40,961 bases of DNA from Atractiella rhizophila (GCA_021432655.1 MU271213.1:62001-102961); one strand, 5' to 3'. Shown: positions 4,999 through 30,270, counted from the first letter of the stretch. Numbers and translations are program-made. The notes: a model not told the origin generated them from the sequence alone.

Positions 4999-6408
4999 AT
5001 GTCCATATGCTTGCTTTTCGTGCCTGCGTCCACTCCTGGAGGAGAGGACGGCTTCTTTTTTCTGTCAGACAAACTCAACAGATGGTCGGTGAACAGCTGC
5101 AATGTGCGAGGAGATGTTGATTGTGAATGAATGTGAAAGGAAAAACATTCCCCACTCTCTCGAAGAACAACTCACAACGGCGTCCAATCGTCCAGGCTCA
5201 GCTCCCAGCTCCTTACGCTTCCTGTTCATAGGTCCAAACGGGACTTGGTTTATGTCATGGAAGGATGCGAATGGAAAGGCATGGTATCGTAGGTAAATCA
5301 ACACTCCGAAACGATATGTTCAGTATTTTCAGGCCCTTATTTTAATGGCAAATACCCAGAAGCAGACTCTTGGATTCGCTCTCATAACACCCCAGACGTC
5401 GATGGCTGCTTAGGACAAGATGGGTATTACTGGCTGTGCAATCCGCATGGCTACAGTTGGCGCTGTCCACCAGGCATGTCGGAAGACCTTAACAGATTTC
5501 GAATTGGACAGACCTGGACGGATGAAGTTCATTGTTGCAGTTTTGGGGTCGAGGCTACCTATGTCGGCCTTTGTAAAAACGGAGGATATTTCTGGGACTT
5601 GAATGGAAAGTATCCTGAGTTGGAGAAGATTATCAAAGAGAAGGGCCTCGCCAATGCCAAAGCGGGTTTCTCATTGCTCTGGCAAGTTTCGTTGCAAGCT
5701 GACATATTCTCCAAGGTGGTCACACTCCATCCGACAAAACCTAACATGTTCTTTATTGGATTTAATGATGGGACGATGAAGTGGTGCTTACCCGATGCAT
5801 GGAACCCTGACCTTCATAAAATCATCCAAGAATACAAGAAAGTATCGGCGGATTCGGCGGCTCCAGCAGGTCTCTCAATTGGTGGTGCTTCTCTGCACGA
5901 AGGGGTTGGGTCGAACGAGGCTGTCTCTGCCTCTACTTCCAGCTCGAGTGCGAATCCCTTTCTAAGCTCAAATGTATACGCTTCCATTCTCTCGTCATCT
6001 TTACAGCCTAAATACGACTTCAGTCAAATGATGCAGCAGTACCAAGAGCAACAGCACGCCCGCACGCAAGAGATTCTCGCATATACCCAAGCTGCTCAGC
6101 AACAGTCAGCTCAGCGAATGCAAGCTCTCCTTCAACAATACCAGACCCCTTCGCCTACTGCGTCACTATTCTCCCAGTATCAACAGCAGCAGTATGCTCC
6201 ACCCCCAGCGCCACCACCAGATTATTCGTCCCTGTACAACTCCATCGCATCTGGTTTTCAACCTTCGGCCGCCGTTCCTGCAGCACCGACAACAGATTGG
6301 TCTCAGATTCTCTCCCAGACCGATGGAGTTGATATTATTGGAAATTTTGCCTCACAAGCTGGACAACAGCTGATGGTAGCAGGAGCAAGTGCGTGTTCAA
6401 TAATGTAG
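4999..6408 (+). CDS. Uncharacterised protein: N-terminal tandem aromatic-rich repeats, Q/P/S-rich low-complexity C-terminus with PPxY, terminal CaaX (CSIM)
   Basis: ATG at 4999. Introns 5085-5139 and 5289-5332 join in frame to ORF 5476-6408. There is a possible in-frame GC-AG intron at 5662-5715. The protein ends GASACSIM-stop. Confidence 0.75.
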
Positions 6409-6429: not shown

Positions 6430-7909
6430 TCAAGATTTTTTAAATGCATCCATAGCCTATACTTTTTGTTAGAACCCTCCTCTCAAACGAGTTAAAACAT
6501 TTACCTCTTTCATGCATACTCCAACTTTGCCCAAATTCTCAGCTAGCCGAATTCCTGCGCTTTCCCACAGTGTCCGCTTGTCTGCGACACCCCCTCTCTC
6601 CCCATCCCACCAGGCACCAGCATGCCCATGTGCCTTGAAAGGTATCACTTGCTGTCCCGCCACATAACCCACGATCGGTTTTGCTCGCCGTTCATCTGTA
6701 GGAGAAAGGGAATTGAGGAAGTCAGCGGCTTCCTCCTCCATCTGTCCGCCCACTTCGCCGATCAATACAATACCTTCATCTCATATTAGACAGGAAATTA
6801 GGATTGGAAAGGGGACAGCATGCCATCTGTATGCGGATCATCAAGGAGGAAAGATAGTGCCTCCCATGTCCGCGTTCCTACATCCGCAGTGTCTTGAATT
6901 GAACAATATGGCGGAAGCAAAGAGTTGCGAACCTGGAAACGGGTCTCCTCCCAATCCAAAAACATAGGATTGTCCCAGTCCCAGCTCGCTGAGTTGCGAT
7001 GCCGCTTCATATGTCATGGTGCCTGAACGACCAGCCACGCCTTCGTTCCACGAAAGACGTGGAGTCAGCGATCTGCAACTGAAGAAAGAGCCATTGATGT
7101 ACCTATTCGACCTGGTGTGTGGACGGCGAGCGGTTGGATACCGAGCTTGAAAGTGTTGATAGGACATATTAAACCTATTCCGATCCATATCAGATATTCC
7201 ACTCACTAAATGACATTTTTACGCTTAAGAGACGGTACCTGGAGAGTTGGCACCAACCAACCTAGTCTTGTTTTGACTTTTGAGCGCATGCATTATCTAT
7301 CAAACCATCACAAATCGCCAACGAAAAGAACTAAGGAGTGACACACCTTCAACTGGTCGTGAGTAGGAATGCCTTCCTCTCTCGTTAGATTTCCTATCGA
7401 AAGCCACATTGGCATGACGAACCTTCAGCGACGGCGACGACCAACCCGATTTCTTCTTCGATGGCATTTATTATGGCATCTGCAGCGAGCTTTGGTGGCA
7501 CGAAAACAAGAGAGGCGTCCGGTTTTAGCTCGTTTACCGCCTATTATTCAATTGGGCTAAATTAACTCTATGCAAGAAGAGTTAAAGTCGGACACACCTC
7601 CTTGAGTGTTGAATAGACAGGCCGATCGAACATTTTTTGCCCTCCCTTCCCTGGTGAGACGCCACCAACAATGTTGGTGCCGTAATTGAGAGCAATGGTG
7701 TTATGGAACAGTGACTGACCAGAAGTCAGTTTCGACAATGAAAACTAGGTAATTTAACCCACCGCTTTTCCCGTGAAACCTTGGACCACCACGCGTGAAT
7801 TCGCTTTGGAAGCGAGAGAGAGGTTGGGAATCGTGGACGTGTAGGGAGAGTGAGTGAGTACGGATACAGCCTGCCGCAGTGCAGACGTGGTGGCAGAAGC
7901 TGAAGCCAT
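6430..7909 (-). CDS. Succinyl-CoA ligase alpha-subunit-like protein (divergent paralog)
   Basis: Spliced translation gives [85 protein letters not shown] and the phospho-His loop HGHAGA. The last intron gives C-terminus ...[15 protein letters not shown] (TGA at 6430-6432). Confidence 0.92.
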
Positions 7910-8833
7910 AATGGAGAGCCGAATGATGCGTGCTTGATCAACTTCGTACGATGTAAGCGAGGAGATGAATCTGGAGTTGTGAAAACAGGTTAAACATTTC
8001 CACGACAACTAGACTTTACTCGTTTCTTTAAATATAGCCCCTAGTAGCTTTTGAAAGCTTTGTCTGAGGTAAACCTCGTTCCACCGCAGGACGGAGATGG
8101 ACTGCTTCATGGTTCCAATGCCGACAAGTGCGTTTTTACAACAGATATCATCTGGAAATTTGTATTTTGTACGAGTCGAAAGGTAATTTCTCATTGCAAG
8201 GTCAATAAAAGCGCGTTCCTGTAGCGCATCGCAGTGCATTCCTCAAAAGAAGAATGGTTCGAGCATTGAGATATTGGAAGCAAAAACTAGCATGTCCTTT
8301 GAGAGGAATGCTGAAGCAGAGAAGAAGTAGCTGACAATCTAAGAGGTAAGAGGTAAACGCACCTGAAGCAGCCTACAACCCCGTCCAGCTTATGCTCCAG
8401 ACAGAAGTAGGTATTATCTCCTCTGCAAGCTGTTGCCTCGGTATGGTTATGGAATCGGGCCGAATCGGAAAGGCTTTCAAGTTAGGCTCCGAAGACAGAC
8501 TCGAAAGGTCGAGCTTGAACTTGGGTCAAGCGAGAGGAGACGTCCTCTTTGAAGCAGTCCTTGCAGCACAAGCTGCTGGAGTCTTGAGAACGGGTTTTCT
8601 TTAGTCAACGAACGCGGTACGTGTCGGCTAGCCAAGTGCTTGACAACTTCTTGTTGACGAGTTTGCATGGATAGATCCTTGGAAACAGCTTTGAAGGTCG
8701 CGAGCCGTACTGATTGTTCCGTTGAAGCACTTAGGTCAACAGACCGACTCCGTCAATCAGACTCAACCTCAGAATTCAACCAGCTCTTCCACACATTTAG
8801 TAGCGCTGGGCAATCCTCGACGTTCTCTTCAGA

Positions 8834-11677
8834 ATGAGTTTTGTTTACTCCTTCCGCGCCTCTGCCTTGCGTTCTCTCCAGCATCCCCGGCATGTTCTTT
8901 CTCAGCGATCCCTCCACTTGTCTTCCTCCGATTCACTGTCGCTTCTCAAAGAAGCTGGGCTACCTACACAACGCCATTGGCCCATTTCTCTCCTGTCATT
9001 AGAAAAGGATGTTTCGCGGGTTAGAACCGAAATGGCAGCCTTGGATCCGAAGCAAACTTCGGTTTCGTTAAGGGCAGAAGTGCCTGTCTGGGGAGAAGAT
9101 GTTGCGAAGCAAGGATGGATTGAAGGGTCCATGAGAGATTCAGGGCAACTCTTTGGGTATTTTGATTGGGCCGAATATAAGAATGGAAACGAGTCAAGAT
9201 TGCTGTGAGTCTCCTCTACTAGCGCAAGTTTCGACTAACGATTTGGCAGGGACATGCAATTGCCAATAGAAATCCATAAACTCTTCCACTGTGATTTCGT
9301 CCTTCCTTCCCCTACAACAAATGAAGAACTCCGTTACCCAATTACACGCCTCCTACTATCACCTAATAGTCTTACCTCAGCGTCCACCTCGACGGTACAA
9401 CGCATTCTCCTCTATCCGCATCGGGAAAAATTGTGTCCAGTCCTCCAGATCGACGACCGAGAGTACGAGCTTGACTATCACAAAGCAGTCGCAGCCATCG
9501 AAGAATTGGCAAGTGGAAAGGGAGAACGTGAGCGAATATTAAAAGAGATATTTGAATTATGGAAGAAATGGGACGGGACACGGTGGGAGTTTTCATTGCG
9601 GACGACCTCCACCGAGGATGGAGAGGAATGCGAGATGTCTGTTTTCCTTTGATTGCTCCCATATAACGCATTGATTCAAGGAAGGCAGCCAAAACCCTTA
9701 TTTTCAGTTTGACGACTTCGCTTCACACCGTCAACCTGACATATTCTCCCTACGCCGCACGGAAGAGGAAGAAAGTCTCCAACTCAAAGCCGAGGAGCAA
9801 GGAATGTTCTACCTCAAATACCCAGGTCTGGGAGCCGTTGGATGCTTTGGTTACGGAGCAGGTTTGAGCATGAGCACGTTGGACGCGGTCATCAATGCCG
9901 GAGGAGAGGTTGCAAACTTCTTCGACGGCGGAGGCGGCGCAAATGCTCAGAATGCTTATGAGGGAATTAAGATTCTTGCCGAGACGCCAGGAGTGAAGGT
10001 GTTGTTTGTCAACATTTTCGGTGGCCTTACAAGGTGCCTCATCTTTCCATCTTCTCAATTGGAGAGGCTCATCTCTTTCACCACGCATGTGTTAGGTGCG
10101 ACTGGGTCGCGGAAGGAATTACAAAGGCTGTACGAGAGATTAATGAAGGAGGACGCACAATTCCTGTCGTTGTGAGGATGAAAGGGACAATGAGCGAAGA
10201 AGGAAACCGATATTTGAGGGAACAAAAGTTTGCCCTGCCTTATCTTCCCTCGCATAAATTGTTGACATTTATTCTTCAATAGCCTGCCCATCATTATCGA
10301 ACGTATGTCCATCTTTCATTACAATTTTGGGTTGTTGATGTTCGTGGGATAGCCGATTTCGAACAGGCAGCCAAATTTGCCGTCGAGGCCTCTAAATCAG
10401 CCGTTGAAAAATTTCGGCTGACGATTTGGCAGGGACATGCAATTGCCTATAGAAATCCATAAACTCTTCCACTGTGATTTCGTCCTTCCTTCCCCTACAA
10501 CAGATGAAGAACTCCGTTACCCAATCACACGACTCCTACTCTCCCCTAACAGTCTTACCCCTACATCCACCTCGACGGTACAACGTATCGTCCTCTATCC
10601 GCACCGCGAAAAACTGTGTCCAGTTCTCCAAATCGACGACCGAGAGTACGAGCTAGACTATCACAAAGGGGTTGCAGACATCGAAGAATTGATAAGTGGG
10701 GAGGGAGAACGCGGACGGATATTAGGGGAGGTATTTGAATTATGGAAGAAATGGGATGGTACACGGTGGGAGTTTTCATTGCGGACAACAACGTCGGAGG
10801 GAGGAAACGAATTCGAGATGTTTGTTTTCCATGGTTGCTCCAATGAACGCATTGACCCAAGGAAGGCAGACGAAACCCTTATTTTCAGTTTGACGACTTC
10901 GCTTCACACCGTCAACCTGACATATTCTCCCTACGCCGCACGGAAGAAGAAGAAAGTCTCCAACTCAAAGCCGAGGAGCAAGGAATGTTCTACATCAAAT
11001 ACCCAGGTCTGGGAGCCGTTGGATGCTTTGGCTACGGAGCAGGTTTGAGCATGAGCACGTTGGACGCGGTCATCAATGCCGGAGGAGAGGTTGCAAACTT
11101 CTTCGACGGCGGAGGCGGCGCAAATGCTCAGAATGCTTATGAGGGAATTAAGATTCTTGCCGAGACGCCAGGAGTGAAGGTGTTATTTGTCAACATATTC
11201 GGTGGCCTTACAAGGTGCCTCATCTTTCCATCTTCTTAATTGGAGAGGCTCATCTCTTTCACCATGCATGTATTAGGTGCGACTGGGTCGCGGAAGGAAT
11301 TACGAAGGCTGTACGAGAGATTAACGAAGGAGGACGCACAATTCCTGTCGTTGTGAGGATGAAAGGGACAATGAGCGAAGAAGGAAACCGATATTTGAGG
11401 GAACAAAAGTTTTCCCTGCCTTAATCTTCCCTCGCATAAATTGTTGACATTTATTCTTCAATAGCCTGCCCATCATTATCGAACGTATGTCCATCTTTCA
11501 TTACAATTTTGGGTTGTTGATGTTCGTGGGATAGCCGATTTCGAACAGGCAGCCAAATTTGCCGTCGAGGCCTCTAAATCAGCCGTTGATAAACAAACTT
11601 CGATCGATGTCCATACATCAACAGAAGTGCCGGAAGCCGAGCCATCAACGCATGTTGACGAGAAAGCTGCTGTCTGA
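8834..11677 (+). CDS. Succinyl-CoA ligase beta-subunit-like protein (divergent), with duplicated 3' exon set (copy 1 stop at 10462, copy 2 stop at 11677)
   Basis: Exon 1 (8834-9204) starts with an Arg/Ser-rich mitochondrial presequence-like segment. Later exons give FQFDDFASHRQPDIF, GCFGYGAGLSMSTLD, ANFFDGGGGA, LFVNIFGGLTRCDWVAEGI and PVVVRMKGT, which match the SCS-beta C-terminal CoA-ligase domain. Confidence 0.88.
9229..11589 (+). repeat. Direct tandem duplication of ~1.18 kb (9229-10407 and 10412-11589)
   Basis: Both units start at tttcg(a/g)ct(a/g)acgatttggcagggacatgcaattgcc and end at tctaaatcagccgttga. The offset is 1183/1182 nt, and the indels I found fall in introns. Confidence 0.97.
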
Positions 11678-15385: not shown

Positions 15386-18114
<2,729 letters not shown>

Positions 18115-21048: not shown

Positions 21049-23670
21049 ATGTCGGCTCTGCCTCCTCTTCCTGGTACCCCTACGAATACAGCTCCGGTGC
21101 TTGCAGACGAAGAAGCGGATGCAGCACCAGAAACACCATCGATGCCACTTCCGGCGCGTCCATCGATTCCCGCGACGCCAACCAAAGAAGGAGGTTTTAG
21201 AAACGATATCATGACGCCAGATGTAAAGCAGGACGTAAAGAAAGAACGTATGGGAAACGAAGGAGACGGATTGAAGGGCGAAGAGGAAATGCGAGAGAAG
21301 GAGAAGCAGAAAGAGGTTCTGAAGGAGTTCGATCCTTTTGGTGCAGCTGCAGCTGATAACGTTGAAGGTGAGGCGGAGAAGGAAGTTGGGAAAGGGGACG
21401 AGAAGGAAGATCTCATGGTTACATCGTCGAAACCATCACTGGAGGATCGCCCGCCAAATTCCCCACCACCACCTCCCCCTCCAAAGCTCGTTACCGCTCC
21501 TTCTGCTTCAAACACGCCTTCTCAGTCCTCTCCATTGACCATAAATCCTTTTGCCACCCTTTCGAGCGTCTTCAGGAAGCTCCCGCCCTTCTCTCCAACA
21601 CATTCACGGAACAACTCAGTCCCTAGCACTCCTCCTCCCGCTCCACAGAAGGATAATCCTCTGGATAAGGAAGTGGGGAAGGAAGACGAGCCCAAGTTTG
21701 ATTATCAGAAATTCTTGGAGAAGATGAGGGATAGAAGAGCTGATGGAGTCGGAAAATATCTGCGCAGGTTCGTCCCTTTCTGAGGTCCTGAGCAGCTAAC
21801 TAATGAGGTCGATCTGGGGTGGAAACAGTTTTCTGAAACACTTTCAAGCGAAGCCTCCGCGAACAATACCTGATCAGATCAAAGTCATTAACGACTTCCT
21901 GGACTTTATTGCACTCAAGATGCGGGAAAACGATCTATTCTATCCATCCCGGCTTCCACAAAAGGTCCGTCTGCCCCTATCTCGCTAGCTGGAAAAGAAA
22001 ACTGATGTGAGAGGAAGGAAGAGAGCGGAAGCTGAGTTCGAGATCAATCTGGAAGCGATGGAGAAGTTAGTCCTTAATCGACTGTGGCATTTGTGAGTAT
22101 CTCGGTACTATTTAACCGTTACTACAACAGCAACTTTTATAGAACATTTACGCCGGTTTTAAACCAATCTGGGTCCACTCGTCCCCCATCCGACGACCTG
22201 GAACGTGACCACGTCCTCTCTCAGCGCATTTTCCTCTTCCGATGGATTGAACCCAAACACCTCGATCTCCCGTTCCCTCGTCCCAAGACAAAGAAGGAAG
22301 GAGCGGAGGGAGAGGAAGGTGTTGATGCGGAGGCGGAGAGAGAAGAGGAAGACGAGCGCGAGGACGGCGGTTGGGACCATTACATTCCCTTTGCCCAGCG
22401 GGAGTTGGGGAACATCAATCACTACAAAGCTCCAAGAGATAAAATCATCTGCGTCCTCAATTGCTGTAAAGTCATCTTCGGTCTGTCCCTCCTCTCGGCT
22501 TTGTCGACTGTTTCTCTGATAGCAGATGTGAGCAGGACTCATCAAGCAGGCAATGGGCAATTCGGAAACTGGGGCAGACGCTTTCATTCCCATTCTCATC
22601 TACATCGTCCTCAAGAGTAACCCCGAACACCTTGTCAGCAATTTGCAATTCGTGATGCGGTTCAGGAACCCGGAGAAATTGGCAGGAGAGACTGGTTACT
22701 ACCTCTCCTCTCTCGTGCGTCCTGTCCTGGTCTATTCCGCTTAAGCATGAGTGTTCAGTGTGGTTGGTACAGAATGCCGCTATTAGCTTCATTGAGACAT
22801 TAGATTGGAGCAATCTCTCTAATATCTCACAGGAGGAATTTGAGCGGTAAGTATTTCTAAAGCTAGAGCAATGTTTTTCATAGAACTCGTTGATTTGTAG
22901 GAATGTGGAATCCGCCATTTCAGATCTACCCACAGAGTTCAAGTCCGACTTTGCTTTAGCCACTCCAAATCTAGCAAACACAATGCTTCCATCGTTTCCT
23001 CCTTCCGCTCCCGCTCCACCTTCTATATCAGAACAACCAACTCGCTGTCCCGCCGCCGTCTACTCCTCAGCGCCCGCATCCAGATACACAGACTACGGCG
23101 TCAACTTCGACCTCTCCTCTCCCTATTCCCATCATGGGAACACTCCGGAAAATGGCCTCGCAGACGGACCTCCTCTCCACTTCTCCCTCAAACACCGCCG
23201 AGCTAACATCTCCTCAACCTCTCTTCCCCAATTCAGCACAAGTCGAAGCTCAAGCACGAGCCTTCTTCCAACGTTCCACCGATCTCGCTCAGCACGCCCA
23301 AAGGACCGTGTCGAAACCTCTCATGGCGGTGGGGAAGATTTTTGAAGATCTGACGAGACGTGGAAGTACAGATAGCGAAAGGACAGGCGAGGAGGAGGAG
23401 AGAGACGGCCCGATGAGTCCGCTGCAGAATCCCCAGAGGGTTAGGAGAGGATATACGTTGCCGGAAGAGGGGATGTATTTGCCGGATGGTATGGACGACG
23501 ATGAGGCTGAGGAGACGGTGCGAAATGCGCATAATCGACGGCACGATGCTGCCTTGGGAACTTTGCAGGCTATGTTCCCCGATGCGGATAAAGAAGTTGT
23601 CGAGATGGTGCTCTTGAGTAATAGTGGGGATTTGGGAAAGACTATTGACCATTTGTTGGAGATGACGTGA
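21049..23670 (+). CDS. VPS9: Vps9 Rab5/Vps21 guanine-nucleotide exchange factor with C-terminal CUE domain
   Basis: FDYQKFLEKMR, AMEKLVLNRLW, DDLERDHVLSQRI, INHYKAPRDKIICVLNCCKVIFG, GADAFIPILIYIVLKSNP, GETGYYLSSL, and the CUE motif LQAMFPDADKEVVEMVL...TIDHLLEM. Confidence 0.96.
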
Positions 23671-23677
23671 AGTTAGC

Positions 23678-26653
23678 TTAACCAGCCTCTGGTTCTACCT
23701 CAGGTTGAGAGAGGAGAGAGGAAATCTGTTCATGTACATTCAGCTTCATAGATACAGATAGTAGAGGGATTTGAAGCACCTTTTTCAATAAATCCGAAGC
23801 GTGAGAAGCTTCCTTCGACGGTATCTTGCCTGCTTCCAGATCGTCTCGTAGTTGAGTTGCAGTGGTCGTCAGCCTTTCCATCACTTGCTCTCTTCTGCCA
23901 TTGCCATCACTTGAGTCGTACCCATCCAACGATGCCCCTAAAGCTGATACAGCCTGAATACGCGCTTTGTAGATCCTATCATCCCGTACAATCTCGATGA
24001 GTTGATCTCTAATTCCTTGGCTGACTTCGACCGGAATCGCGACTCGCTTGGCTGAGAAGATCTTGTACAGCGCATGCGCCGTGTTCCACCGTAGCTTTGC
24101 GACTTCGGACTTCAGAGCGGTCTGCAACACTTCGATGGAGTTGATGATGTCGTTGGAGGGAAGGAAGGAGTCTCCGAGCGCAAAGATGCAGCCGAGCGAA
24201 CGTACGATGTTGCCTTGTACCTTGTTGAAAGCAGTATGCTATCAAGGAATGTAAGGAAGGGGATTTGGAAGCACTCACGTTTGCCGAAGAAGTCTTGTGA
24301 AAAACAGAAATTAGAGATTCGATGAGAGCGTGCGTCAGGCTGTCGGAGAACATGACTGGCGGATCACTGTCTGCGATGTTCGCTAATGCCCAAGTGAGAG
24401 GGTAACGGGTTTGTTCTGGAGCGAAAGGATCGTTGAGGAGCATGAGGAGGAAGTCTACGAGTTCTTGTTGATCCTATCATCCTTTGTTAATTCTCACCGC
24501 ACTGAGAGGCACGTGGGAGGAATGACGGACGATTATGGAATGCATCTTGTCGAACAAGAATCCGATGCTTCGAATGGCTGATATCTTGACATCCACATCC
24601 TCGTCCAGGGTTAAGACTTTGAGTTTCTGAAACGTTTGTTCGGTCGATTTGTTCCACGCCAGCAAGAAAGAGCATGAGGCAGACTTAACGGCTGGTTCAT
24701 TTGACGAATCGAGGAGATGCTGTATCGTCCGAAGGTCCTCTTCAAATGCCTTTTCCATGTGATCACCAGCGGCTGAAGGAGGTAGGATAGCTGCTAAACA
24801 TTTGAGTTGCAAAAGCTTCGTTTCCGTCTTTGACTGTGCCAAACTATGTTTAACGATTTGGATGACCGACTTCAAATCAGACGCGGTGACGCTGAGGAGT
24901 AACAGGCTCCATAGAATTTCTGCATTTTCTCCATCCGCCTTTTCGCTCTGCAGCCTCGACAATACCTTCTTCGTGATCCCATCTTTTCCCAGGTCTCCTA
25001 CAAGAACAGTACTTTCGCATTCGTACTTTCGACAAACCTCTAGGATCCTCATTGTCACCGCCACCGCTGCTGCACAGACTTCCCTCGCATCCAATGGTTC
25101 CAAGAAGGTGAGAACATTTCGGAGGAGGTTCTGTAAGAGGGAAGGGTGGAGTTTGTCATATGGCGAATTATCGACGATTGTGCTGGCGAGGAAGAGGATA
25201 GAGGTGAGGAGGTTCGATGGATAGTTGGAGCAATATGGTTTCAGGAGGAGACCGTACATTCGAGAGTGTAGCTCGCGCACCATTCCTCCGAGTCGTTCAG
25301 AGAGGGATATGAAGGATGAACTTGGCCTTCCGGTTTGAGATCGTAGGTTGCCCCTCCCTCTCCCTCTCCCTCTCCCTTGCCCTTGGATTGAGAGGTTGGA
25401 GGTCGAAACTTGAAGTGATGGGTCTTCTGCGATCTTGAGATAGCTCTCAGAGCCTTCCAAGAGAAGTTTGGCCAATTTGACCGCGTTCAAGCGGACGAGA
25501 GAGGAAGAGTCAGAGCTGATGAGACTGAAGAGGTTGTTGTTCGAGGTAGAGAGAGAGTAGTAGGCGGAGTTGGGATAGAAGGGAAAGAAGAGGTTGAAGT
25601 ACGGATGGAAGGTCTTTGGAGATTTCGATGTCGAAATGACCGAATGGAGGAGATTCAGCGCCGCGTTTCGGATCTTGGATGCTATGACACGGCGGGATTC
25701 TTCTGGCGTTACATTTTGACGCTCTTCGCTCTCTGATTCCGAAGGAGTAGTCTCTCGCTTTCTCCAAGAAGTGGACATGGAGTTTCCAACCGCTGAAACA
25801 GTATAGGAAGCAGAAGGGCTCGCATCCCTCTTTGAAGGTGTAGAGGGAAAGGGTTTGCGAAAGGATGTTGCACTCGAAATAGAAGAGGTTGAGGTGCGTT
25901 TGCTTAAAGTAGAATCAGGATCTCGAAAGTAAGCCCACCAAGTGAGGTTATCGAACGCGTCTGTATGGAGTTGCTTGAGGATCGGTTGGTCGGATCCTTT
26001 CTCTTTTTCCGATGGTAGCTTGAGCACTAGCGTGTTGATGAGTCGTAGAGAAACTTCGACGAGTTGTAGTCGTGATAACTCATCTGCTCCATGGCTATGA
26101 GAAAGGGAGGGTACGGAACTCCTATACTTCTGCTCCTGAATGAGGATGTGGTTCGTCTCGTCGTAAACGTTTTGGAAAGGTGATGGTTGTTTGGACGGGT
26201 AGGCGTTGACGGACACGATTGTGAGAAGGCAGGAGGCAGCCAGATGGCGCGTTTTGTGGTTTGCAGCTGTGTCCCGCAAGACGGACAGAAGGAAGGGAAA
26301 GAAAGAAGAGTCTTCCTGCTCTCCATCTCAGTTTGATTTGGAATAAGAGAAAGCGAGAAGAGCGCACAGGGGTGCAACCATCCCTCAATTTGACCTTGAA
26401 CGCGCTCAATCCGAGCTCGAGTGGACCATCCTGCGTTCTTATGCCTTCACCGTCACTCTCACTTTCTGTGAGCGATGGCTCCTTGATGCAGTTCTTCTTC
26501 GGTTTCTTCTTCAGCGTCCACGCTTTCAGGTGAGTCTCCAACCGTTCGAGCTCCACTTCCATCACTCCATCGCGGGTCTAACCAGCGTGTTGGGTCAGTA
26601 CTACAACCACAACAAGAACAACAGCTGACCTCTGCAGACCCTGCTTCCGTCAT
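23678..26653 (-). CDS. HEAT/ARM-repeat protein, HEATR6 (DUF4042)-like
   Basis: ATG 26653 splices in frame to exons at ~26580-26370 and to ORF 24477-26279. Motifs KIRNAAL, FHPYFNLFFP, SDSSSLVRLNA...LLEGSESYL, SFISLSERLGGMVRELH, and C-terminal KLRWNTAHAL / YKARIQAVSAL resemble HEATR6. Confidence 0.75.
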
Positions 26654-27092: not shown

Positions 27093-30000
27093 ATGCCGGC
27101 TCCAGTCGACACCCCAGTCTTTTCCGATTCAGGTTCAGAATACTCCATCGCTACGGGTCCAGGTGGGCGAGGAGGACCTCAGCGTTCTAGCAGTGTTGCG
27201 AGCAACTCGAGCTATGGGGGTGGAAAAAGTTATGTCGAAGCTGATAAGTATTATGGGTCCTCACATCAAATGAGGATAAAGACGAGGACCTTTAGTTTCG
27301 TGAGCTTCCCTTTTTTTCCGGCGATAGAATATGTGGTATGTTATATGGGAAAGGGAGTCTGATGCTCCTGTTTGTTCATGTGGGATAGAGCAAGACTCAG
27401 TCTATCACTCCCGGTCCGGGAAATAGGCAACGACGCTTATCCCAAGGTGTGTGCACTTTTGCAGAAATGGGACCCCACACTGAAGTCACATCGGTGTAGA
27501 TGAGCGAGGGACCAAACCACGGAAATTCCTCATCGACCTCGAAGAGACGATGAAGATTGTCCTTGAGCAAGAAGACACAGACGGCAACTTCCAGGTGCGT
27601 TTCTCTCTCCAATCATTTCATCCTCAGACTGACTTCGGACGAACCAACGTTAGATATCCGTCGACGACAAAGGTCCTAAAATCTTCCCCCTCGGAACCGC
27701 TCACTCGAACGGTTTCAAGTCCTTCGACATCCGAGGGACGTACATGTTGTCCAACCTACTCCAAGAGCTCGCTCTCGCACAGTCGTACAACCGTCGTAGG
27801 ATCGTACTAGACGAATCCCGTCTGACTGAGAATCCAGTCAACCGTCTGAATCGAATGATCAAGAATGCTTTTTGGAGCGGATTGACACGACGAATCGACT
27901 CCCACGGTTTGAAACAGATCCTTTTGGACCCGAAGAACAGGAGTCCTGATCTCACTAGCTACATTTATGTCCCTTCTCATCCCGAGTGTAGCGATATGAG
28001 AGAATATTATCGCAATTTGGCGGTGAAGGATCCTTCGTTGAATCTCAAGGTCATCGAACTCCCTCCTCCGGATCAAATCGATGGAAAACTCACTTACTCC
28101 TTCAACTCCAAACCCGGAATTTTAGCGCTGGCCATGAGGAGGGAACATGAGAGGGAAGAGGAGACTTTGGAGAAGGAAGAGATTGAGGAATACATCAGGA
28201 TGCATGGAAAGAGACCGGATATCAGGGAACCGAAAGATAGAGGAGAGTTGACTGGCATTCCCTTCGTCGTACCAGGAGCAAGGTTCAATGAGCTGTACAA
28301 CGTAAGTTTTCGTCTTCGGTCTCTAAACTCTCCGAGGAGGAGGAGCTGACAACAAGCTTGTTGCAGTGGGACAGCTACTTCATCTCTCTTGGTCTGCTCG
28401 TAGACGACAAAGTAGAGCTCGCTCGAGGAATCTGCGAGCACTTTGCGTTCCAAGTGAAACACTACGGAAAGATCCTGAACGGCAACCGATCCTACTACCT
28501 CTGCCGCTCCCAACCTCCCTTCCTGACCGATTTCGCAGTCCAGATCTGGGCACGTCTACCCAAGACCCTTTCTACCAAGTCCTTCCTCCGTCGTGCGATC
28601 AAGGCTGCAATCAAGGAATACCACACCGTTTGGATGGCTCTTCCCCGCCTCGACCCCGTTTCAGGTCTGAGTAGGTTCAGACCTGGTGGACAGGGAATAC
28701 CTCCGGAAACTGAGGCGTCTCATTTCCTCCATATTCTCGAACCCTATGCTGAGAAACATGGATTGAGCGTTCATGAGTTTACGGAGGCTTATAATGAGGG
28801 AGTGATCAAGGAACCGGAGCTGGATGAGTACTTCTTGCATGACAGGTAAACCTCACCTCTTTCCCCAAATTAGAAACGTGAGACTCACGCGTGCCTACTT
28901 CAGAGCGGTAAGAGAGTCTGGTCATGATACCACATACCGTTTCGAAAAGGTCTGCGCCAACCTCGGAACTGTCGATCTCAATTCTCTGCTTTACAAATAC
29001 GAGATCGACATCGCGTCTGCGATCAAGTCTGTATTTGACGACCGTCTCGAATTGGACGATGAGTTCGACCTATCGCCCTACCCATTCGGGAGCGAAGTTC
29101 CAGACCACGTCGACCGACGAGAGAAGTCGACATTCGCCTCGTATGTTCCTAGCCAATCGCCTTGGTTCAGCAACAAGGAGGGAAGGGAACGGATGCCCAA
29201 GATTTCGTCGACTGCGAAGGTTCAGACGAGCGCGGAGTGGTTGGCGAGAGCGATGAGGAGGAGGAAACTTATGGATAGGTATATGTGGCATGAGGGAAAG
29301 GCAATGTATTTCGATTATGATACCGTCAAGAGGAAGATGGGACTTTACGAGTCCGTCACTTGCTTTTGGCCTATGTGGGCGGGATGCGCTAGCGAGCACC
29401 AGGCTCAACAACTCATGTTCGTTCTCTTCTTCATCAGCCTTTGGAAAATTGTAATGACCGACCGATGACCGTGGTGCAGGAGCAAAGCCCTGAAGAAGTT
29501 CGAGGTCACTGGCGGTCTCGTCAGCGGCACAAAAGAGTCGGTGGGCAAGATTGGACTCGACAAACCGAATCGTCAGTGGGAGTGCGTCCTCTTCTTTCCC
29601 TGCATCCGTTCTCTCATTGATGGTATTCGGAATAGTTATCCGTGCGCATGGGCTCCGCACCAAATCATGGGATGGATCGGAATGGAAAGGTACGGATATA
29701 ACGCCGACGCGGAAAGGCTTGCCTATCGATGGTGCTACATGCTCACCGCCGGCTTCGTCGATTTCAACGGCGTCGTTCCTGAGAAGGTAGGCCATTTTGT
29801 ATACAACGAGGAATCCTGACCGAATCTTATTTGTCGGATAGTTGGACGCGGTAGCTCTCTCTCATCACGTCACGGCGGAGTACGGCAACCAAGGCGTGGA
29901 CTTCAAGCGGATCAATCTCACAGGATTCGGATGGACGAACGCCTCGTACCAAATCGGACTCGAGTTCCTACAGGTCGCTCAAAAACGAGCGATCGGTAAC

Positions 30001-30270
30001 CTGATTGCTCCAGACGTCTTCTACAACATGGAAGGCAGACGTCGAGATCGCAACCAGGTGGAAGATTGGAGGGCAAAGGTGCATATGGGAGCTAATGGGG
30101 GAGAGAGTGAGCTTGAGAGGGAGAGGATGGAGAGGGAGGAGGTGGAGGAGAAGTGGGAGATGGTCCGTGATGGCAGGACTAGGAAGCTTTCTGCTGTCGC
30201 TGGCAGTCCGGGTGCGCCGAGCGAGTTTGGGAAGAAGCTGGTACAGGAGGCTAGTCAGACTAGCCCTTGA
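27093..30270 (+). CDS. NTH1: Neutral trehalase (GH37) with N-terminal PKA sites and Ca-binding motif
   Basis: RTFS/RRLS PKA-type sites, [85 protein letters not shown] and GFGWTNASY. Confidence 0.97.

Follow-up and report, generated by a model that had tools for sequence, protein, structure and literature searches.

The 40,961-nucleotide stretch of Atractiella rhizophila DNA analysed here (GCA_021432655.1 MU271213.1:62001-102961; hereafter the window, in whose coordinates all positions are given) contains a head-to-head pair of genes related to the two subunits of succinyl-CoA synthetase (SCS). The SCS-alpha-like gene lies on the minus strand with its ATG at 7909 and the SCS-beta-like gene on the plus strand with its ATG at 8834, leaving a gap of 924 bp. 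Database proteins that carry the species name match the window: P0001, labelled 'succinyl-CoA synthetase-like protein', at 100%, and P0024, 'putative succinyl-CoA ligase subunit alpha', at 99%. Four public runs (X1, X3, X4 and X5) were compared with the window between 6300 and 11800. X1 behaves as DNA and gives no spliced joints; X3, X4 and X5 are taken as RNA-derived solely because their contigs skip GT..AG introns, none of them being recorded as RNA. All four runs read T and G at 7772 and 7787, where the window has C and C, so that the window's own strain cannot clearly be recognized among them.

The coding sequence of the SCS-alpha-like gene (6469..7909, minus strand) encodes 334 residues in nine exons: 7763-7909, 7598-7714, 7423-7540, 7347-7372, 7239-7296, 7103-7174, 6933-7040, 6824-6877 and 6469-6773, the last including the stop codon at 6469-6471. 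All eight introns are seen as joints in the RNA-like contigs of X3, X4 or X5, and the spliced frame is open. The last intron (6774..6823) is of the GC..AG type on the gene strand; the X3 joint across it (6772>6823) carries two ambiguous letters, and the reading frame is preserved only if the cut is shifted one base on. The product equals P0024 at 100% outside residues 217-233, where the database model reads through the intron at 6878-6932 and loses a conserved stretch of 17 residues. Its identity is about 50% both to pig SCS alpha (E 3e-77) and to basidiomycete LSC1-type proteins. Both domains of an LSC1-type subunit are present: the exon at 7571-7738 matches the CoA-binding domain PF02629 (1.9e-7), and P0024 carries PF00549 together with PF02629.

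The SCS-beta-like gene (8834..11677, plus strand) begins with a single exon 1 (8834..9204), whose reading frame opens after an in-frame stop at 8801 and which encodes an arginine-rich N-terminus and the start of a degenerate ATP-grasp half. Contigs of X3 and X4 are spliced from its donor (9204|GTGAGT). Exon 1 is followed in the window by two cassettes of exons 2-6 in series. Cassette 1 (9226..10408) comprises the 3' end of intron 1, five exons (9250-9636, 9689-10033, 10096-10227, 10283-10302 and 10353-10408) and the repeat junction. Its intron 9637-9688 is removed in X4 and X5 contigs, and an X1 DNA contig over 9290-9721 shows no differences from the window. The frame of this cassette is open and, if read on, would end ...SAVEKFRLTIWQGHAIAYRNP followed by a stop codon; neither a donor nor a terminator is evident after its last exon. 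Cassette 2 and the true 3' end occupy 10409..11677 (repeat copy 10409-11593), with exons at 10433-10819, 10870-11214, 11277-11408, 11465-11484 (a micro-exon of 20 nt) and 11535-11677, the last containing the stop codon; the joints 11218/11275, 11409/11465 and 11484/11535 were all seen in contigs. A 1371-nt contig of X3 (record 11) joins 9204 directly to 10433 and continues with the letters of cassette 2, and X3 has no depth on exon 2 of cassette 1. The same joint occurs in X4, and both X4 and X5 also have contigs on exon 2 of cassette 1. Spliced exon 1 plus cassette 2 yields a protein of 465 residues, the product backed by X3. P0001, in contrast, is a model of 687 residues that starts at an internal methionine and runs from cassette 1 into cassette 2 in a single frame. 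We rejected it as the main product, as the joint it needs does not appear among the 15 of 22 joints listed and the X3 contig gives 465 residues; both database models (P0001 and P0024) need correction. Very short internal exons backed by spliced contigs occur in both genes (26 nt at 7347-7372; 20 nt at 10283-10302 and 11465-11484). The N-termini of both proteins are poor in acidic residues, that of the beta-like protein being rich in Arg and that of the alpha-like protein in Ser, Thr and Ala, and it is this composition alone that suggests a mitochondrial location.

Phylogenetic trees set both proteins apart from the canonical SCS subunits. In a quick alpha tree of 30 rows, chosen from the 120 listed of 4880 alpha matches, 12 rows form an alpha-like clade (SH-aLRT 100) that is joined by a branch of 1.41 to 18 canonical rows, including those of Kalmanozyma and Dispira. 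The clade has named members from Meredithblackwellia, Testicularia, Exobasidium and Sympodiomycopsis as well as unnamed proteins, and the Atractiella alpha falls here, on a long query branch, and not with the LSC1 orthologues. The beta tree has 39 rows, and in it the 12 rows of the family separate from the 27 canonical ones (SH-aLRT 99). Further beta-like members were found in a full-library search with the Phenoliferia protein P0002 (P0144, P0145, P0147-P0149, P0151, P0154 and P0159); in one database search, three of 23 matches carried PF00549 alone, and all three belong to the beta-like tree set. The family occurs in several basidiomycete classes, and leads from the ESM Atlas point to Ascomycota too. 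Databases name its members merely 'SCS-like', and a text search of the literature found no description of the alpha-like/beta-like family. One relative, P0003 from Ceraceosorus, is modelled at 1101 residues with a C-terminal PPM-type phosphatase domain, which may be a gene-model fusion or real.

The alpha-like and beta-like parts also occur in a single protein. In P0150, a natural fusion of 672 residues, a beta-like N-terminal part is followed by an alpha-like C-terminal part, and the family motifs of both are present; the protein matches PF00549 twice, PF02629 and PF13607, and the N-terminal part of its ATP-grasp half is mostly missing. Because P0150 fuses the two, the alpha-like and beta-like products very probably work together. 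The ESM Atlas clusters nearest to P0150 (724 residues with 335 members, and 634 residues with 105 members) are mostly from Ascomycota and carry CoA-ligase and CoA-binding domains, and for the beta-like protein P0148 the nearest is a cluster of 415 residues with 58 members and PF00549 only; these are leads and not alignments.

To see which residues of SCS the family has kept, 13 alpha-like rows were compared with 97 canonical alphas, a column being called conserved at 95% or more, and the beta-like proteins were compared with 81 canonical betas, with 10 family rows covering the VNGAG motif. In the alpha-like proteins, 62 of the 191 conserved canonical columns are kept in all 13 rows, and among them, as in an LSC1-type subunit, are the catalytic GHAGA histidine, the RSGT phosphate loop and the GEIGG glutamate, all three of which the RNA-based alpha model contains; the CoA-binding residues are retained as well. 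Other positions have changed throughout, namely the Thr of ITEG to Ala, the Ile after GHAGA to Trp, and the Gly of IMPG, which is lost (each in 13/13 rows); the Pro of GPN is Ala in 11/13, and the GGKG motif is lost. The C-terminal half of the beta-like protein is likewise well preserved, since exon 3 matches the C-terminal CoA-ligase domain PF00549 (7.7e-9), as in LSC2-type proteins, and the Atractiella protein retains 34 of 40 conserved columns. The sole universal change in this half is the replacement by Tyr of the Asn in VNGAG (10/10 beta-like rows), which is Asn in 75 of the 81 canonical rows. We take this Asn to be part of the succinate site, and the acid pocket is, by this comparison, probably altered.

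The ATP-grasp half of the beta-like proteins has fared very differently. In Phenoliferia P0002, 4 of the 21 conserved columns survive, and the Atractiella protein is mostly unalignable there. The conserved Lys, the GGRGK loop, the Asn of EINPL and the Lys of DAK are lost in the family. No ATP-grasp model of Pfam matches any of five family betas at E<=1, while a control, P0007, matches PF08442 at 2.4e-75; in the Atractiella gene, exon 1 has no Pfam match and exons 1 and 2 have no ATP-grasp match at E<=0.01. The ATP-grasp_2 domain of an LSC2-type subunit, as judged by PF08442 and the Lys, GGRGK and EINPL/DAK motifs, is therefore not recognizable. The original prediction had described a divergent, non-canonical alpha/beta pair about 920 bp apart, and this description is confirmed: the distance between the ATGs is 924 bp, both proteins belong to clades of their own, the three alpha motifs it quoted (GANSPG, AVAEG and HGHAGA) are all found in the alpha translation, and the beta motif FGYGAGLSMSTLD is found in the beta translation, in two occurrences. 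Set against the canonical alphas and betas, the quoted motif changes are family-wide and not noise.

The closest known system is the mitochondrial SCS (LSC1/LSC2; SUCLG1 with SUCLG2 or SUCLA2). As in SCS, there are two subunits, the alpha being about 50% identical and sharing the CoA-binding domain, the RSGT loop, GEIGG and the GHAGA histidine, and the beta matching SCS beta in its C-terminal CoA-ligase domain and overall fold. The differences are the separate clades, the loss of the ATP-grasp motifs, GYGAG for VNGAG and DGGGGA for DVGGGA in the beta-like proteins, and, in the alpha-like proteins, mostly GAN(C/S)PG for GPNCPG, xAEG for ITEG, IQPL or ISPV for IMPG, and a Trp-rich stretch in place of the GGKG that follows the histidine. 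The head-to-head linkage of the two genes is a further difference, LSC1 and LSC2 of yeast being unlinked. ATP-citrate lyase (ACL) and citryl-CoA synthetase belong to the same superfamily of five subdomains; the order in P0150, beta-then-alpha, is also that of ACLY, and in filamentous fungi the two ACL subunit genes are divergent neighbours. The present proteins are 334 and 465 residues long, no citrate-binding (PF16114) or citrate-synthase-like domain is among their Pfam matches, and the PDB matches are far weaker (3e-32 for the citryl-CoA synthetase small subunit and about 1e-9 for ACLY, against 3e-77 for SCS alpha). ACLY, moreover, has a functional ATP-grasp domain.

SCS and ATP-citrate lyase are textbook enzymes whose mechanism relies on a swinging histidine that serves a nucleotide site as well as a CoA/acid site. 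In SCS, a nucleoside triphosphate (NTP) phosphorylates the histidine at the ATP-grasp site, and the histidine swings to the CoA/acid site, where an acyl-phosphate and then an acyl-CoA is formed. In the family described here the second site and the histidine are kept while the residues of the first site are lost, which together suggest a heteromer without standard NTP coupling. We thus favour, with a probability of roughly 55%, the reading that the products of the two genes are the alpha-like and beta-like subunits of a distinct, non-housekeeping fungal branch of the SCS superfamily, and that the pair forms a heteromer handling the CoA thioester of an acid other than succinate. Such a heteromer would still run the 'site I' chemistry (CoA thioester, acyl-phosphate and phosphohistidine) on its non-succinate acid, but this chemistry would not be coupled to ATP or GTP in the standard manner. 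Its likeliest modes would be a phosphate-dependent cleavage or exchange of acyl-CoA, or the charging of the histidine by some other phosphodonor. A more specific picture, which we offer as speculative and on balance improbable, is that the whole family, with separate proteins in basidiomycetes and a fused form in some other fungi, represents an enzyme derived from SCS that has abandoned the nucleotide site and works by site I alone. Catalytic phosphate and the phosphohistidine would then move CoA between carboxylic acids or cleave a specific acyl-CoA, or a separate phosphodonor, nucleoside-diphosphate kinase for example, would charge the histidine, and the pocket with Asn changed to Tyr would set the non-succinate substrate. 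To our knowledge, no such site-I-only mode of reaction has been described for this superfamily. A conserved fungal branch with the histidine and the CoA/acid site but without the nucleotide-site residues would be a natural dissection of the SCS mechanism with a new overall reaction, or else a pseudo-enzyme of a new kind; in both cases it would mark an unassigned step of fungal organic-acid or acyl-CoA metabolism.

Several points weigh against this interpretation. The Glu of EINPL is kept in five of the nine beta-like rows aligned there; the roles given to the Lys, GGRGK, the Asn/Asp residues and the VNGAG Asn are those we presume from structural work on SCS; and the loss of motifs may not mean the loss of nucleotide binding. 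The ATP-grasp fold, in addition, is probably kept, as judged from structural models. An AlphaFold2 model of P0001 residues 1-352 has a mean predicted local distance difference test score (pLDDT) of 76, with the first 150 residues at 40-70, and superposes on SCS beta chains with template modelling (TM) scores of 0.63-0.66, at about 3.4 A over 288-298 columns. For P0148, the Atlas model can be superposed on canonical betas over 332 residues, ATP-grasp region included, with a TM score of 0.69. By sequence, subdomains 1, 2 and 5 of the superfamily, that of the acyl-CoA synthetases forming a nucleoside diphosphate (NDP; SCS, ACL and ACD), are clear, the ATP-grasp being made up of subdomains 3 and 4. 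In each tree, moreover, no branch is longer than that of the Atractiella protein (1.55 and 1.77), which makes its exact placement less certain.

The main rival is an ordinary acyl-CoA ligase of the NDP-forming type, which would activate malate, itaconate, methylsuccinate or another non-succinate acid at the expense of ATP or GTP, just as malate thiokinase and citryl-CoA synthetase of this superfamily do. The intact residues of site I, the change in the acid-pocket motif in all 10 family rows and the apparent retention of the ATP-grasp fold in the models all suit such an enzyme. We nevertheless consider it unlikely, because the nucleotide-site residues are lost family-wide, no ATP-grasp profile matches even at E<=1, and P0150 largely lacks the N-terminal part of the ATP-grasp half. 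The original prediction had proposed a heterodimer that activates a different organic acid; in the light of these results, its notion of two subunits acting together is supported by the P0150 fusion, and the Asn-to-Tyr change makes an altered acid pocket probable, but the implied activation by a normal NDP-forming ligase is not supported.

A still more doubtful possibility is that the pair is non-catalytic or decaying, that is, pseudoenzymes or genes being lost. The very long branches in both trees, the poor confidence of the beta-like model in its first 150 residues and the loss of ATP-grasp motifs could be read in this way, but the catalytic His and the phosphate loop are invariant in 13 of 13 alpha-like rows, RNA-like contigs show correct splicing and an open frame for both genes, omega is 0.15 between the two versions of beta exon 2, and the family is spread over several basidiomycete classes, with Atlas leads to Ascomycota. 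That these are simply fast-evolving housekeeping SCS genes of Atractiella is very improbable. In its favour, no canonical Atractiella LSC1 or LSC2 appears among the matches listed (120 of 4880 for alpha), a list that is not a search of the genome itself, yet the clade includes Ustilaginomycotina while another species of that group gives a canonical row, and the ATP-grasp motifs that SCS needs are lost.

The original prediction recognized the beta-like gene but overlooked that its whole 3' part is repeated in tandem. The direct repeat measures 1.18 kb (9226-10408 and 10409-11593), with three blocks at 90%, 98% and 95% identity, and is the only direct repeat of at least 80 nt in the 41-kb window, which has no N. 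The repeat unit begins in intron 1, so that each copy includes a branch point and an acceptor, and stops within the last exon. Identity between the cassettes varies by segment: exon 2 is 87.3% identical (12.7% of positions differ; dS 0.449, dN 0.069, omega 0.15) and intron 2 is 82.7% identical, while from exon 3 onward identity is 95-100% (98-100% in the exons), with dS 0.058, dN 0.005 and omega 0.08. These dS and dN values indicate that both versions of exon 2 have been retained as coding sequence, and both 3' cassettes appear to be kept under purifying selection. Between the predicted isoforms there would be 18 residue differences, of which exon 2 accounts for 17 and exon 3 for one. The arrangement resembles duplicated, alternatively used exon cassettes in that two versions of exons 2-6 follow one exon 1, each preceded by a branch point and acceptor and each with coding constraint. 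It differs in that the entire 3' part of the gene, and not a single exon, is repeated, in that cassette 1 has no evident donor or terminator, and in that the RNA-like contigs cannot separate skipping from allelic difference. Elsewhere, an unrelated protein of 198 residues with a canonical VNGAG (P0146) has two near-identical segments of the CoA-ligase domain in series, apparently a further tandem duplication within this domain.

As to the origin of the repeat, it is nearly an even bet that the two cassettes are alleles, or a structural variant of one haplotype, assembled in series and not a fixed tandem duplication with alternative splicing. In X1, which is heterozygous at several places, one contig, at a depth of about 193, runs from the end of exon 1 through a variant intron 1 into an exon 2 that begins like that of cassette 2 (G at 9234 and 9237, T at 9265), and the final 21 bases of this variant intron are those of the partial intron ahead of cassette 2. 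The window-like path to cassette 1 has a depth of about 117-124, the depths of cassette 1 (124) and cassette 2 (224) add up to about that of the flanks (272-341), and the depth reckoning for the bin 10348-10531 requires no contig crossing the junction. This pattern of depths and links fits two alleles in X1 better than serial copies, and the 9204>10433 joint may then be ordinary splicing of an allele without cassette 1 and not the skipping of cassette 1. Against two alleles, the window has no N and the repeat is its only long direct repeat; the junction is not simply exon 6 followed by either version of the intron, which suggests some age; none of the four runs, all differing at 7772 and 7787, is clearly the window's own strain; and contig depths are rough. 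We put the odds that the tandem layout is real in the sequenced haplotype at about even. Near the 3' end of the beta-like gene, an X1 contig over 11560-11726 has 15 mismatches to the window in 167 positions; haplotype or strain divergence is very uneven across the locus.

The divergent region shared by the two genes (7910..8833, between the ATGs) is short, and the spliced contigs of both are found in the same three RNA-like runs, X3, X4 and X5, in agreement with the shared promoter and co-regulation originally predicted, although contig depth cannot rank expression. The 5' untranslated region (UTR) of the beta-like gene is covered by X5 contigs from at least 8517 and contains an intron at 8617-8673, seen in X3. 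On the alpha side, a single X4 contig that ends at 7973 and carries 15 loose letters equal to window 8366-8380 hints at a UTR intron of 392 nt (7971..8362, minus strand, GT..AG on the gene strand). With such an intron, the alpha-like gene would have its first exon near 8363 or further out, and the first exons of the two genes would lie within about 150 bp of each other, which agrees with a compact bidirectional promoter; its core is likely to lie between the outermost 5' exons, at roughly 8380-8516. No upstream ATG occurs in either UTR piece. A search of metagenome contigs for linkage, with P0037 as the query, gave 80 loci at 37-44% identity that are bacterial and sucD-like in appearance and no fungal relative, and was not used.

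The neighbouring genes with Pfam matches are a Sec23/Sec24-family gene (16008-18114, minus strand), a VPS9/CUE-domain gene (22078-23667, plus strand), a HEAT/DUF4042 gene (24480-26327, minus strand) and a trehalase (27654-30267, plus strand). With such neighbours, a metabolic gene cluster around the pair was rejected; these are housekeeping genes that give no clue to a pathway. On the other side of the alpha-like gene, an open reading frame of 310 residues (5476-6408, plus strand), with a C-terminal half rich in Gln, Ser and Ala and no Pfam match, ends about 60 bp from the alpha stop codon.

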